Virus record (IMG/VR): IMGVR_UViG_3300042444_000045
Location: 53,769 to 117,768 of that record
Origin: a virus
Reading direction: 5' to 3' (one strand)
Length of the DNA: 64,000 nt
Under the pieces are notes generated by a model. The model saw nothing but the letters and a program-made list of their open reading frames with translations, had not been told where the DNA came from and did no database searches. Each line of letters begins with the position of its first letter. Within the stretch, counting starts at the first letter, position 1. The position numbers were made by a program, and so were the translations under genes. This document shows positions 41,889-45,740 of the stretch, piece after piece.

Positions 41889-42144
41889 ATGTAAATTATT
41901 ATAAGACTACCCAGGGGTAAACGAATGAAGAATAAACCCCCCGGGCAATCTGTTTCATCTGTAGCATGGTAAAGGTAGAAAGTCTGAAGGAAATATACAA
42001 CTACGGGGAGGGGTTTTTTACCATACAAGAGTATGTGGTGGGGCATTGCTACAACACCCCCCGGCCCCTGGCGGAGAGGTGGCCACCCCCCTTTGTTTCA
42101 GAGAACATCTTACTACACAGGTTACTAACACTAAATTTTTTACC

Positions 42145-42342
42145 ATGGAAAAAGTTTTTCACCCAGACTGCAGCTGCGGTCAACCTGTACTGTATCATAT
42201 TGATCAGATACCTGTGTTTGAGAACAATGTTCTGATTGCTATGCAACCAGGTGATGTATGGTTTCACACAAGGTGTGAAGATTGTGATTATGCCATCCTT
42301 GTTGCTAATTCACCAGAAGAAGAAGATGAGTTGCCCTTTTAG
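42145..42342 (+). CDS. Small Zn-ribbon-like early protein
   Basis: MEKVFHPDCSCG...RCEDC...EDELPF; downstream of motif copy 1. Confidence 0.6.
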   Translation: MEKVFHPDCSCGQPVLYHIDQIPVFENNVLIAMQPGDVWFHTRCEDCDYAILVANSPEEEDELPF

Positions 42343-42393
42343 GGCATCTCATTTTTCTTGAACATCTTTTTACTTAATCTTAAATTATATATT

Positions 42394-42564
42394 ATGAAGA
42401 TTAAGAAAGGAATGAAGTTAGTATTTAATAATAGAAGTGAAGTTATTATTAAAGGAAGTAATGATAGAGTTAATGGTATGATTGTTACTGATGGTAATGA
42501 ATATAGTGTTGATTTTATTATGAGATGGTTAGAGTTTGGTTTTGTTAAATTAGAAGGGGGTTAA
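42394..42564 (+). CDS. Small early protein
   Basis: MKIKKGMKLVF...; motif copy 2. Confidence 0.6.
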   Translation: MKIKKGMKLVFNNRSEVIIKGSNDRVNGMIVTDGNEYSVDFIMRWLEFGFVKLEGG

Positions 42565-42610
42565 TACCCCTTTTCTAAAACATCTTATTACTCTATCTAA
42601 ACTAACACTT

Positions 42611-42811
42611 ATGAAAACACTTAAACAAGTGCAATACTGTGCTATTGCCATTATTTCTTTAGTATTCTTTGAGGCTATGCTAACTATGGGTACTGTATTC
42701 CGCTTTGAGGATTACAACTGGTTTGCCTGGTTTATGCAGTCTGTAGCATTTGCATTTGCAATAACTACAGCCTTGAGAGTAGAACATGAAACAAGTAAGG
42801 AGGGTCAATGA
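42611..42811 (+). CDS. Small 2-TM early protein
   Basis: Two hydrophobic segments; motif copy 3. Confidence 0.6.
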   Translation: MKTLKQVQYCAIAIISLVFFEAMLTMGTVFRFEDYNWFAWFMQSVAFAFAITTALRVEHETSKEGQ

Positions 42812-42859
42812 TCCTCTTTACTTATTGAACATCTTTTTACTTATCTTAAAACTAATAAC

Positions 42860-43096
42860 ATGGAAAAGAGAAATGCATTATTTGTAGTAACCTATTTTGC
42901 TATAGGTTTATTTGGTGGTTGGTTATTAGGAGCTATGACTTCTAATGATAGACCAAGAGCACAGAATATTAAGGCTGAATATTATCTTGAGTTAAAGAAA
43001 GATGGTTCTGCTGTATTAGAAGACATTGGCGGCAATACTTATCATTGCCCAAAGCTAGAAGACATTGCTTCTGTGTTAGAAAGAGACAACCTGTAA
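42860..43096 (+). CDS. Small membrane-anchored early protein
   Basis: N-terminal TM; motif copy 4. Confidence 0.6.
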   Translation: MEKRNALFVVTYFAIGLFGGWLLGAMTSNDRPRAQNIKAEYYLELKKDGSAVLEDIGGNTYHCPKLEDIASVLERDNL

Positions 43097-43138
43097 TGGG
43101 TTGTCTTTTACACACAAGAACATCTTATTACTTATATT

Positions 43139-43240
43139 GATATAACAAGGAATGTTTCCAGGGGGAGCAGGGCCAGCCGTGGCTACTGCTTAATATACCT
43201 ACGAGAGGAATCCTATGGGGAACACTTGTTATATCTTTTT
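43139..43240 (+). ncRNA. Candidate structured small RNA 1
   Basis: Perfect 11-bp closing stem GATATAACAAG/CTTGTTATATC, inner stems TGTTTCC/GGGAACA and AGCAG-GGCCA/TGGCT-CTGCT, then T5; own motif copy at 43119; longest ATG ORF 13 codons. Confidence 0.55.
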
Positions 43241-43285
43241 ATATAATAACATCTTATTACATAAGATAACTTAAAACCAACAATT

Positions 43286-43489
43286 ATGATTACAGCATTT
43301 TTATTAGAAGGTAGAACAGCAAGTCTACTTGAAGAACTAAACGGCATCTTCATCCTTGCAAGAGGAGAAGGATTAGACAACACAGAAGTTGAGGACTTAT
43401 TGCTCCTGCACACTGATGACTTAGAGCATTATGTTGTGCAGTGCAGAAGAGATGAAGAAGTTGGTTTAGTGCAGTTAGGGGGACAATAG
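43286..43489 (+). CDS. Small acidic early protein
   Basis: Motif copy 6; AAAACCAAC leader. Confidence 0.6.
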   Translation: MITAFLLEGRTASLLEELNGIFILARGEGLDNTEVEDLLLLHTDDLEHYVVQCRRDEEVGLVQLGGQ

Positions 43490-43519
43490 TTCCCCTTTAT
43501 TTTTTAACATCTTATTACT

Positions 43520-43622
43520 CAATCTGATATTGAGGTAAAGTGGTAGTCCCATCCACATTTAAAGCTGGGCATAGTTAGGTAGTACACTTATATCATTAGG
43601 GGGCTTAGGCTCCCTTTTTTCT
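43520..43622 (+). ncRNA. Candidate structured small RNA 2 (possible pseudoknot)
   Basis: No ATG; TGATAT/ATATCA outer stem, GTGG/CCAC hairpin whose loop CCCA can pair with downstream TGGG; terminator AGGGGGC-TTAG-GCTCCCT-TTTTT. Confidence 0.45.
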
Positions 43623-43674
43623 TTTTTTAACATCTTTTTACTTAACCTGTATTAATCCCTTAAATTATTTTATT

Positions 43675-44070
43675 ATGAAAAGTTCAGAGAAATTGAAAGC
43701 CTACAAGCAATCACAAGCAGATTACAATGATGCAAGTGCTGTGATTGATGGAATCCGCAAGCAAAGTAGTGAGATCCGTGACATTAGTGTCAGTTCTAAC
43801 TTGGTCATTGACAGAGCTTCAACAGAGAGACAGTTCTTGTTTGCTCTTGGCATCTTGTCTCAGCAGATTACAAGTTGTCCACTACTGAATCTTCCTGATG
43901 CGGAGTATATAGAGAAACGTGATAAGATCACTGCTCTATGGAAACTTATGCAGGAAGAAAAGGCTTGGGTTCAGTATGCTAGTGAACTGCGTAGGTATAC
44001 CTATGAGCTGGAAGACTTGCTTGATAGTGATGACAAGTTTCAGCTGTTGGAATATCCGAAGAAGAAATAG
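43675..44070 (+). CDS. Helical early protein
   Basis: Motif copy 8; terminator gggaaagggagc-ttcg-gctccttccctttt follows. Confidence 0.6.
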   Translation: MKSSEKLKAYKQSQADYNDASAVIDGIRKQSSEIRDISVSSNLVIDRASTERQFLFALGILSQQITSCPLLNLPDAEYIEKRDKITALWKLMQEEKAWVQYASELRRYTYELEDLLDSDDKFQLLEYPKKK

Positions 44071-44136
44071 GGAAAGGGAGCTTCGGCTCCTTCCCTTTTT
44101 ATTTGAACATCTTATAACTTAAACATAAACTATACT

Positions 44137-44334
44137 ATGGACACAGAAACTGTATTTAAAGTTATTACTATGCTTGATGCAAGAATAGGAATATGTGAGG
44201 GATTACTCAATGGAACAATTGATGAAGACTTTGACATAGCTTACGTATGTGGTGAACAAAATGCTCTCACAGATTTAAGAGATCACTTGCAAGGGTATAT
44301 TGAGCTACAAGTAGCACAAGTAGAAGGGACCTAG
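44137..44334 (+). CDS. Small early protein
   Basis: Motif copy 9. Confidence 0.6.
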   Translation: MDTETVFKVITMLDARIGICEGLLNGTIDEDFDIAYVCGEQNALTDLRDHLQGYIELQVAQVEGT

Positions 44335-44378
44335 TCCCTTTTACTTATAACATCTTTTTACTTAAACTAAACTAAACT

Positions 44379-44519
44379 ATGGAAGAGGTACAAATACAGC
44401 TCACATGGGATGAGCTACAAGTGGTGTTAGCTGCAGTTAGGCATGTCAAGAACCAAGTGGACAGTGACAAGCTTGACACAGCATATGTGAAATTAAGCAC
44501 AAAGTATAAGGGGGTATAA
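44379..44519 (+). CDS. 46-aa early protein (not in ORF track)
   Basis: MEEVQIQLTWDELQVVLAAVRHVKNQ...KYKGV; motif copy 10. Confidence 0.6.
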   Translation: MEEVQIQLTWDELQVVLAAVRHVKNQVDSDKLDTAYVKLSTKYKGV

Positions 44520-44607
44520 TGCCCTCTTATTCTTCTGCCTGCGGCACCTTTTAATAACATCTTATTACATAGATAGTATATTGTTTAACCCTTTAATTCT
44601 TTTTATT

Positions 44608-44958
44608 ATGTCAGATTTCTCTGAAACTCGTTCTTTAGTTGCTTATATGCAAGCAGTACAGTCTCCTAACCTTAACATTGTCAAGGGCAAGGAAAAGACA
44701 AACCCTAAAACTGGGGAGCTCTACACACCACGTTATGTGCAGTTCCTCAAGCCTGATGGTGGTGTTCTTGGTACTGCTATGCTTGCAAGCAAGATTGAAA
44801 ACATTACTGCGGCAAATGCACGTGACTTGGACGTGTCGTGGGTAGAGGGTGTAACCGAGGGAGGTTCACCTGTAAAAGGCTATATGGTACACGGACGTAG
44901 CACTGCTGAGGTTATCAGCACGTTCAGTGTTGCAGACTTGGCTACTATTGGTGCCTAG
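44608..44958 (+). CDS. Early protein, paralogue A
   Basis: TAMLASK...LDVSWVEG...VKGYMVH...STFSVADLATI. Confidence 0.65.
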   Translation: MSDFSETRSLVAYMQAVQSPNLNIVKGKEKTNPKTGELYTPRYVQFLKPDGGVLGTAMLASKIENITAANARDLDVSWVEGVTEGGSPVKGYMVHGRSTAEVISTFSVADLATIGA

Positions 44959-45068
44959 TGAAACAGAGTGCGGAGAAATCCGTACTCTTTTTTTTCTGGC
45001 TGCGCCACCTTAGTTAACATCTTTTTACCTACTATGTATTATTGTTTAACCTTTAAAAAACACAAAAC

Positions 45069-45389
45069 ATGAACAACAATTCTGTAGAGTTTATTGAAAC
45101 TAAGTCTGCTCTTGACTTTATGAAGAGCATTGGGGCCACTAATCTTAACATCCAGCAGGGTGATAAGAAAGTCCCATATATAGGCTTCAATAACAGTAGC
45201 AAGACAACTGCTATGTTGTCAAGTAAAGTAACTGCGGTAACTGCCCATAACATTCACGAATTACAGGTGAGTTGGGTAGAAGGTACCAATGAAAACGGTA
45301 AAGCTGTGAAAGGCTATTTACTACACCGTGTTGGTAAGCCTGCTGAGATCCTATCCACGTTCAGTGTGGCGGATATGGCTACCATTTAA
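45069..45389 (+). CDS. Early protein, paralogue B
   Basis: TAMLSSK...LQVSWVEG...VKGYLLH...STFSVADMATI. Confidence 0.65.
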   Translation: MNNNSVEFIETKSALDFMKSIGATNLNIQQGDKKVPYIGFNNSSKTTAMLSSKVTAVTAHNIHELQVSWVEGTNENGKAVKGYLLHRVGKPAEILSTFSVADMATI

Positions 45390-45740
45390 GGTACATAAGG
45401 GAGTGTTCTTAGGAGCATTCCCTTTATCTTTCTCTATATATAGGGAGATGAGACTTAACGGTCTGTTATCTCTCTATATATATAGAGAAGAGAGACTCTT
45501 GTGTGTGGGAGAACCACACTTCATGATAATACAGCTCTTGAAACATGAGTAAATTCAGTAGTTTCTACTACAGATATAGTAATATATAGCTAAACATAAG
45601 CACATACATGAGTAACATACTACATGTATTACTATTAGCTCTATATATATTAGTCTTATTACTATATATACTATTCCTATATAAAGGAACAGAGTATAAG
45701 ACTCCGGAATTGTATTTATTCACCCCTAATTATATTTACT

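Follow-up and report, generated by a model that had tools for sequence, protein, structure and literature searches.

How is a row of twelve small genetic units transcribed when a terminator-like hairpin separates nearly every unit from the next? The question is raised by an array at positions 42104 to 45424 of a 64,000-nucleotide stretch of viral DNA (the window, bases 53769-117768 of the 117,768-bp virus record IMGVR_UViG_3300042444_000045, which is rated 99% complete), in which the 13-mer AACATCTTWTTAC recurs at the head of the units. When up to one mismatch is allowed, AACATCTTWTTAC has 13 matches in the window, all on the plus strand, against 0.49 expected, and none of 100 shuffles reached 13. 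Twelve of the matches form the array (42104-45016, +), all at the positions reported by the first-pass annotation of this DNA; ten are exact and two, at 42104 and 44106, carry one mismatch. These copies are all intergenic, all on the coding strand, and restricted to one 3.3-kb region. The thirteenth match, at 18554 with one mismatch, lies within the minus-strand portal gene and looks like a chance occurrence; apart from it, the annotation's remark that the 13-mer does not recur elsewhere in the window holds. The scan of the full genome that the annotation had proposed returned the same 13 matches, all forward, with none on the reverse strand and none for a reversed control pattern. We propose, at a probability of about 0.6, that the array is a set of early promoters of a virion RNA polymerase (RNAP) that double as recombination linkers resembling the promoter-stem-loop elements (PeSLs) of T4-type phages.

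In 10 of the 12 units, the start codon follows the beginning of the motif by 30-53 nt (17-40 nt past the motif end), and the ten open reading frames (ORFs) encode 46-131 aa; the other two, unit 5 (43119) and unit 7 (43506), hold no ORF of 25 aa or longer. A GC-rich stem-loop with a T-rich tail is located at most 60 nt upstream of 10 of the 12 motif copies. The copy at 43248 is preceded instead by the unit-5 RNA described below, with its long closing stem and T5, and the copy at 42104 by a GC-rich tract without a clean terminator and without any gene upstream on the same strand. The region 41000-48000 contains 20 sites that resemble terminators (a GC stem with a T-run), compared with 3.7 ± 2.4 expected. 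The position of the motif copies between a terminator hairpin and a start codon suggests that each unit needs its own promoter, as the terminators would otherwise block expression. The first-pass annotation was accurate on these points, having described a hairpin and T-run before almost every copy, a spacing of 30-53 nt to the ORF and two ORF-less copies. It had also called the ORFs mostly unrelated, and the only paralogs are indeed those of units 11 and 12 (48% identity).

The consensus over the 12 copies is a single block in which AACATCTTWTTAC is preceded by a T-rich run and followed by a weaker TTA, and no second conserved block was found up- or downstream of the 13-mer. The primary-sigma promoter of Bacteroidota is characterized by TTTG at -33 and TAnnTTTG at -7. 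Neither box was found in the 13-mer and its flanks, and the annotation's statement that the 13-mer is unlike the TAnnTTTG box is upheld to that extent. A promoter read by the host RNAP, with a host sigma factor or a specificity factor supplied by the phage, would use the 3' half, TTATTAC, in the manner of a -10 element, with the start about 7 nt farther on. In favour of this, the TAC end lies 7-9 nt before the stem of the unit-5 RNA, a spacing that is typical of -10 elements too, and the core ACAnCT..TAC is common across the clade, as a conserved host factor would require. We nevertheless consider it unlikely, given the single block with nothing at -35/-33 distance, the dissimilarity to the Bacteroidota boxes, a scan for sigma-70-type sites without enrichment (21 vs 26.2 expected), no sigma-70 region 2 found encoded in the genome, and the lesser economy of injecting a sigma-like factor compared with an injected polymerase that would already be present. 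As a separate observation, identical TATATTTG boxes that fit the Bacteroidota -7 box lie 4-24 nt before three late-gene starts (40580-40587, 29391-29398 and 23751-23758, minus strand); the octamer is not enriched overall (10 vs 6.3 expected).

The ORF-less unit 5 is informative about the level at which the motif acts. It contains a predicted RNA of ~97 nt (43139-43235, +) that is closed by an 11-bp stem between its two ends, with T5 after the stem; the predicted fold has -39.3 kcal/mol, with a z of -3.86 relative to shuffles. The core of this RNA is kept in 24 viral contig stretches, about half of which have other upstream contexts without this motif family, and in an alignment of 14 distinct sequences, 7 of the 21 predicted pairs show compensatory changes. 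In six lineages that carry the RNA in the array, sequence inspection places the beginning of the closing stem 7-9 nt past the local motif variant. The motif thus lies a short and constant distance ahead of a non-coding RNA, which suggests a transcription signal abutting the start site and not a translation signal. The RNA was seen in phage contigs only: two exact-pattern scans of 185,579 prokaryote genomes with its core gave no match each, and 43119-43247 had no match in Rfam 15 at E up to 1. An identification as Y-RNA was considered and rejected, there being no TROVE/Ro protein in the genome and no Rfam match. Unit 7 (~80 nt) has no significant fold (z -0.12) and no counterpart in the ten relatives' loci compared.

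These observations also bear on a signal acting in RNA, with one upstream promoter giving a long transcript that is cut at the motif and stabilized at its 3' ends by the hairpins, or with the motif as a leader element or an enhancer of translation. A start farther upstream would place the motif in the RNA, and the unit leaders have no Shine-Dalgarno sequence by inspection, so another initiation aid is conceivable. Such a signal is very unlikely all the same: the hairpins have T-runs like intrinsic terminators, the motif also precedes two ORF-less units, one of them the structured RNA, the first copy has no gene upstream on its strand, and variants linked to the RNAP tree (see below) are not expected for a host nuclease or the ribosome.

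A tblastn search with the terminase of the phage gave matches in 133 phage records, of which the 25 listed belong to crAss-like or Bacteroidota-host phages at 22-26% identity; terminase, portal and major head protein were also recognized by PHROG matches, all on the minus strand. Outside the window, giant minus-strand ORFs stand in a row, and an RNAP gene at genome positions 12457-24669 (minus strand) encodes 4070 aa, with DFDVD at residue 2523 inside an R.P...GGDFDVDK motif. Its central 1501 aa match phi14:2 g066 ('Catalytic RNA polymerase subunit') at E 2e-9 and, in total, 81 phage records, all of them crAss-like. This homology is visible only through tblastn of the central part; the whole 4070-aa protein gave no match against PDB sequences and PHROGs. 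A search with PF00940 (T7-like RNAP) had no match and is uninformative, as the control was also silent. By sequence homology, the protein is a gp66-type two-barrel RNAP, a homolog of the phi14:2 virion RNAP. Because of the relatedness of terminase, portal and capsid together with this RNAP homolog, the uncultured freshwater phage is classified here as a divergent crAss-like virus (Crassvirales in the broad sense). The first-pass annotation had guessed that the phage is crAss-like and that its RNAP gene lies beyond the window, and both guesses are borne out by the terminase, PHROG and RNAP-core matches and by the gene position. The 2560-aa ORF inside the window (29419-37101, -) was ruled out as a polymerase and is a collagen-like tail fibre; its GC content is 40-50%, compared with 33-37% in the surroundings.

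Relatives were found via a 210-aa gene beside the array, an exact 16-mer and a downstream helicase; a search for loci with the unit-12 protein gave one locus, and a megablast of the array DNA against 50,697 phage records gave no match. Below, G000 is the genome of the window's phage, and other G and L labels are relatives' genomes and loci. Eight other contigs carry the identical 13-mer in arrays of at least three copies. Other relatives have the same arrangement of hairpin, T-run, motif, leader and ATG at the same place, but with an altered motif. The AACATCTT type occurs in the window, in G001 (8 copies, plus 2 of AACAACTT and 1 of AGCATCTT) and in at least seven other contigs. AACAGCTCATAAC is found in L035 (7 copies), L169 and L170, TACAACTCATTAC in L051 (4 copies), TGCAACTT in L060 (7 copies) and L193, and TTATWACTTTWTAAGTA in L014, which is the same as G002 (11 copies). 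A TACAGCT type is shared by G009 (7-8 copies) and G012, the latter with six copies of ATACAGCTTT and two with A, and a TACAACT type by L162 and G013, which has five copies of ATACAACTT. The pattern WACAnCTYnnTAC fits all these variants except that of G002. When 43 helicase loci were scanned, ~11 showed a clear array, 15 lacked any repeated 9-mer, and in the others the seeds were AT-rich and uninformative; the 10-kb flank used may miss the array in several of these loci, and in L187/G001 the last unit alone lies inside it. No array was found in the 14-16-kb stretches examined of G007 and G010. A AACCTTTAAATCAGAA repeat in the array-less relative G008 was rejected as an instance of this element, as it sits directly before ATGs inside an operon; it directly precedes four consecutive start codons (L199, 606-1265) and is possibly a translation-initiation element.

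If the motif is read by the phage polymerase, the motif type would be expected to change with it. The RNAP tree was built from the first ~1040-1060 aa of the central RNAP stretch, with six genomes testable. It groups G000 with G001 (100/99) and G009 with G012 (100/100), places G013 beside the latter pair and leaves G002 on a long branch, which is the grouping of the motifs (AACAT; TACAG; TACAA; odd). The terminase tree places G001 with G009 (99/98) and G012 with G002 (100/100), and on terminase the AU test rejects both motif-defined pairs, with p 7.6e-5 for (G000,G001) and 4e-4 for (G009,G012); the motif-based groups had been named before the terminase tree was seen. In the helicase tree, G000 is with G- and A-type contigs, G001 with G009, and G012 apart from G009. 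Thus, in these six genomes, the motif type follows the RNAP tree and conflicts with the terminase and helicase trees. The strong disagreement among the three trees indicates that the genomes are mosaics. On the G000 map, with circularity assumed, terminase lies between the array and the RNAP gene on one arc and helicase on the other, so plain linkage does not explain the match between motif and RNAP. The polymerase core also evolves much faster than terminase and portal in the same genomes, with 36-51% identity between relatives versus 78-86% for terminase and 79% for portal.

This match to the RNAP tree, against the terminase and helicase trees, is a further point against the host-RNAP promoter. 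It likewise bears on the motif as an operator, i.e., the target of a DNA-binding protein of the phage that turns the early units off or on, with the true promoters weak or overlapping and the regulator keeping the repeats alike. A tight single 13-mer, confinement to one temporal block and lineage-specific variants would fit a phage-encoded regulator as well. The link, however, is to the RNAP tree specifically, each terminated unit would still need a promoter while there is no other conserved block, and no candidate regulator emerged, with PHROG matches for 0 of 16 small proteins within 42145-47669 and Pfam matches for 0 of the 10 cassette proteins. We therefore regard an operator as quite unlikely.

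Whether the repeats also serve cassette turnover was approached by clustering the proteins of the window array and of 13 relatives' loci. The 13 loci share families in a largely collinear order, and differ by presence or absence of whole units, with few duplications. The family order is F. H B - I - D C G A A in the window, F H B J K - O D G A A in L105, and J I. K M O. D. G A A in L120. DNA homology to L105, L010 and L009 stops at 42355 and restarts at 42579; unit 2 is thus an exact motif-to-motif block that is absent from these three loci. Among DNA runs, 19 contain the full stretch. A relative co-occurring in a lake DNA run has only pieces of the array in common and carries the AACAGCTCATAAC variant. 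The first-pass annotation had suggested that cassettes are shuffled by recombination at the repeats, and had taken an identical gene order in all relatives as evidence to the contrary. Such an order is refuted by the differences in content and order, and the gain and loss of units is supported by the 13 loci and by the unit-2 indel; recombination at the terminator-promoter joints is the part that we infer. Whole-unit indels bounded by the motif and varying unit order and content would also be expected if the repeats had no part in transcription and were mere scars of recombination or linkers between mobile cassettes of an integron-like or PeSL-like kind. The strictly kept strand and distance of the motif with respect to start codons and the RNA stem, the conservation of positions clade-wide over deep divergence, and the match to the RNAP tree, which scars would not show, make this reading highly implausible.

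Taken as an early promoter, the 13-mer would be the core recognized by the phage's own gp66-type two-barrel RNAP, the 4070-aa protein presumably being packed in the virion and then injected. Transcription would start ~0-8 nt past the motif, a few bases after TAC, and each transcript would comprise a short leader without a Shine-Dalgarno sequence and one small gene, or the ~100-nt structured RNA, and would end at the hairpin and U-run upstream of the next motif. The outcome would be 12 independent, insulated transcription units at the head of a rightward module. The terminator-promoter joint is alike in all units, so that the joints could serve as short homology patches at which whole units are gained and lost, as in T4-type PeSLs. 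The first-pass annotation had already suggested a promoter of the phage RNAP; the motif heading a structured RNA, the variants following the RNAP tree and the dissimilarity to Bacteroidota boxes lend this comparative support, which is indirect. The promoter role, the enzyme reading the motif and the start site are thus each put forward from sequence comparison. In its widest form, the WACAnCTYnnTAC family would be the promoter of the crAss-type two-barrel virion RNAP, with positions 1, 5 and 8 as a specificity code changing with the polymerase clades, and would launch the ORFan cassettes and the conserved structured RNA at the start of infection while its joints drive cassette turnover; we would give this roughly even odds.

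Several observations weigh against the proposal. Only six genomes enter the co-variation test, the base at position 5 of the motif is not strictly uniform (A in 2 of 11 G001 units and in 2 of 8 G012 units), and overall RNAP identity does not by itself predict the motif (51% for G001, 49% for G009), only the tree does. G006 and G008, near-complete genomes with a homologous RNAP, have no array in their whole contigs, while the same scan recovers that of the window; both belong to a second polymerase clade. No intergenic copy of the motif family was found in the early region (first 16 kb) of phi14:2, and according to the available text of the study on that phage, its early transcripts have no detectable common upstream motif (10.1101/2020.03.07.982082). 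Packing of the polymerase in the virion and its injection are presumed from homology. As for recombination, alignments would end at the motif regardless of the recombination site, because the motif is the only sequence common to neighbouring units. The only RNA run, metatranscriptome X20 (7% of sampled words), yielded three contigs from relatives (91-99.6% alike), covering 44608-44927 (unit 11), 45062-45330 (unit 12) and 45736-45970 (the next ORF), with no coverage of the remaining stretch; since contigs can show neither starts, levels nor absence, X20 is not used as support.

The units, all on the plus strand, are arranged as follows. Unit 1 (42104..42360) has its motif at 42104-42116 (AACATCTTACTAC), an ORF for a Cys-rich 65-aa protein at 42145-42342 and a terminator hairpin core at 42332-42346. 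Unit 2 (42361..42578) comprises the motif at 42361-42373, a 56-aa ORF at 42394-42564 and a hairpin at 42557-42570, and unit 3 (42579..42827) the motif at 42579-42591, an ORF for a hydrophobic 66-aa protein at 42611-42811 and a hairpin at ~42793-42823. In unit 4 (42828..43118), the motif (42828-42840) is followed by a 78-aa ORF (42860-43096) and a hairpin (~43081-43109), and in the ORF-less unit 5 (43119..43247), the motif (43119-43131) by a 7-nt spacer and the structured RNA with its T5. Unit 6 (43248..43505) contains the motif at 43248-43260, a 67-aa ORF at 43286-43489 and a terminator at 43477-43496; unit 7 (43506..43628), without ORF, has the motif at 43506-43518 and a terminator at 43598-43615. 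The longest ORF, of 131 aa, is that of unit 8 (43629..44105; motif 43629-43641, ORF 43675-44070, terminator 44075-44092). Unit 9 (44106..44348) begins with AACATCTTATAAC at 44106-44118 and has a 65-aa ORF at 44137-44334 and a hairpin at ~44318-44346, and unit 10 (44349..44535) has the motif at 44349-44361, a 46-aa ORF at 44379-44519 and a terminator at 44509-44528.

The last two units encode the family-A paralogs. Unit 11 (44536..44996) opens with a mini-hairpin, TGCC-TGC-GGCA (44536-44546), followed by the motif (44556-44568), a 39-nt leader, a 116-aa ORF (44608-44958) and a terminator (44965-44988). Unit 12 (44997..45424) has the mini-hairpin TGGC-TGC-GCCA (44997-45007), the motif (45016-45028), a 40-nt leader, a 106-aa ORF (45069-45389) and a terminator (45397-45424). 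The mini-hairpins (4-bp stem, 3-nt loop) lie 9-10 nt upstream of the two motifs, with the stem swapped from GCC/GGC to GGC/GCC; the same mini-hairpins occur upstream of the family-A units in L105 and L120, and in 11 of 81 units across all arrays. Family-A units also have in common the longer leader, with TATTGTTTAACC. The first-pass annotation had supposed a possible role of the cassettes in host takeover or anti-defence; the 10 cassette proteins had no match in Pfam or PHROGs. ESM Atlas searches with the unit-12 and unit-8 proteins gave a best score of 0.84 or nothing usable, and an AlphaFold2 model of family A (9 sequences, pLDDT 72) had no Foldseek match in PDB at E 0.001 or better.

Features adjoining the array were also recorded. 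On its left side, the 210-aa gene at 41256-41888 (-) matches PHROG 3704 ('ferredoxin') and has no Pfam match; in the best 80 of 439 confirmed viral stretches, its identity is 90-99% in clearly different genomic contexts, and it looks like a widely exchanged auxiliary gene. In the ~320-nt gap after unit 12 (45425-45740), there are inverted repeats of the TCTCTATATATA type, and half of a motif, TCTTATTAC, lies at 45654; comparable TATATA tracts adjoin the arrays in L015, L035 and L051, and the gap is possibly the next promoter class or a replication origin. Just 3' of the array, a tRNA-Arg (TCT) at 46432-46506 (+) is followed by a terminator at 46508-46531.

CrAss-like phages, among them the most abundant viruses of the human gut, have the virion RNAP as their hallmark enzyme. 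A strong signal in 5-12 copies per genome that co-varies with the polymerase would provide a concrete, synthesizable template for this enzyme family, and the natural motif variants could be used as specificity swaps for learning how crAss-type RNAPs recognize DNA. No description of this motif was found in the literature, subscription-only papers and the supplements of the phi14:2 preprint not being covered, and the promoter of the crAss-type virion RNAP is not known to have been described. In phi14:2, as described in the available text, gp66 is the virion RNAP making early transcripts, it is active in vitro only on single-stranded or denatured DNA, and two early non-coding regions are highly expressed (10.1101/2020.03.07.982082); the accessible parts of a study of crAss001 and of a 2023 review give no early promoter. 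The present phage resembles phi14:2 in its homologous polymerase and in a putative early module of small genes, here with two ORF-less units known from sequence alone. In contrast to phi14:2, which is without the motif family, a strong 13-mer heads every unit here, and the conclusions come from comparison where those on phi14:2 come from experiment.

The virion RNAP of coliphage N4 belongs to the T7-like single-subunit polymerases, and the promoter that it recognizes is formed by a DNA hairpin, short-stemmed and with a 3-nt loop, in a constant position ahead of the start. This polymerase reads the early promoters of that phage (PMC4496689, PMC13492108). The proposed likeness is that an injected polymerase reads a few phage-specific signals limited to the first-expressed genes. 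Unlike in N4, the polymerase here is of the two-barrel type and the motif a linear 13-mer; a mini-hairpin with a 3-nt loop stands upstream of only 2 of the 12 window units, and the remaining hairpins vary and serve as terminators for the unit before them, so an N4-type hairpin promoter is not indicated. In Thermus phage P23-45, as far as the available text describes, the virion RNAP gp96 has an AT-rich pre-early promoter motif identified by transcription start site (TSS) sequencing and ChIP, and the motif is present only in relatives having the polymerase (10.1101/2022.12.01.518664). The two systems share a two-barrel phage RNAP and, as proposed here, an own motif upstream of early genes. They differ in that P23-45 belongs to an unrelated phage group and has its polymerase fused to the tape measure, whereas the motif here comes from comparison only.

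Phages of the T7 group have pairs of promoter and polymerase specificity, in which the few promoter positions that differ between phages go with the polymerase, as shown by experiment. A conserved block that would abut the start site, with few positions varying with the polymerase, is a similar situation, although T7 polymerases are of the single-subunit family. The closest parallel in organization is with the PeSLs of T4-type phages, composite joints of a terminator stem-loop and an early promoter that flank ORFans (PMC2839356; PMC4122927); in the parts of the work available, their promoters are sigma-70-like (-35, -10, AT-rich upstream) and read by the host RNAP, and their recombination was demonstrated by mini-circles in inverse PCR (PMC2839356). 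Shared with PeSLs are a stem-loop and a candidate promoter in intergenic joints upstream of ORFans, dense arrays, insulation of cassettes, and ORFan indels between relatives that are bounded by the elements (unit 2 and the 13 relatives' loci). In contrast to PeSLs, the array has a phage-specific 13-mer in a single block without sigma-70 features, and its presumed recombination is read from genome sequences and not from mini-circles. Thus, the array may extend the idea of terminator-promoter joints as linkers of ORFan turnover to a phage that would bring its own polymerase.

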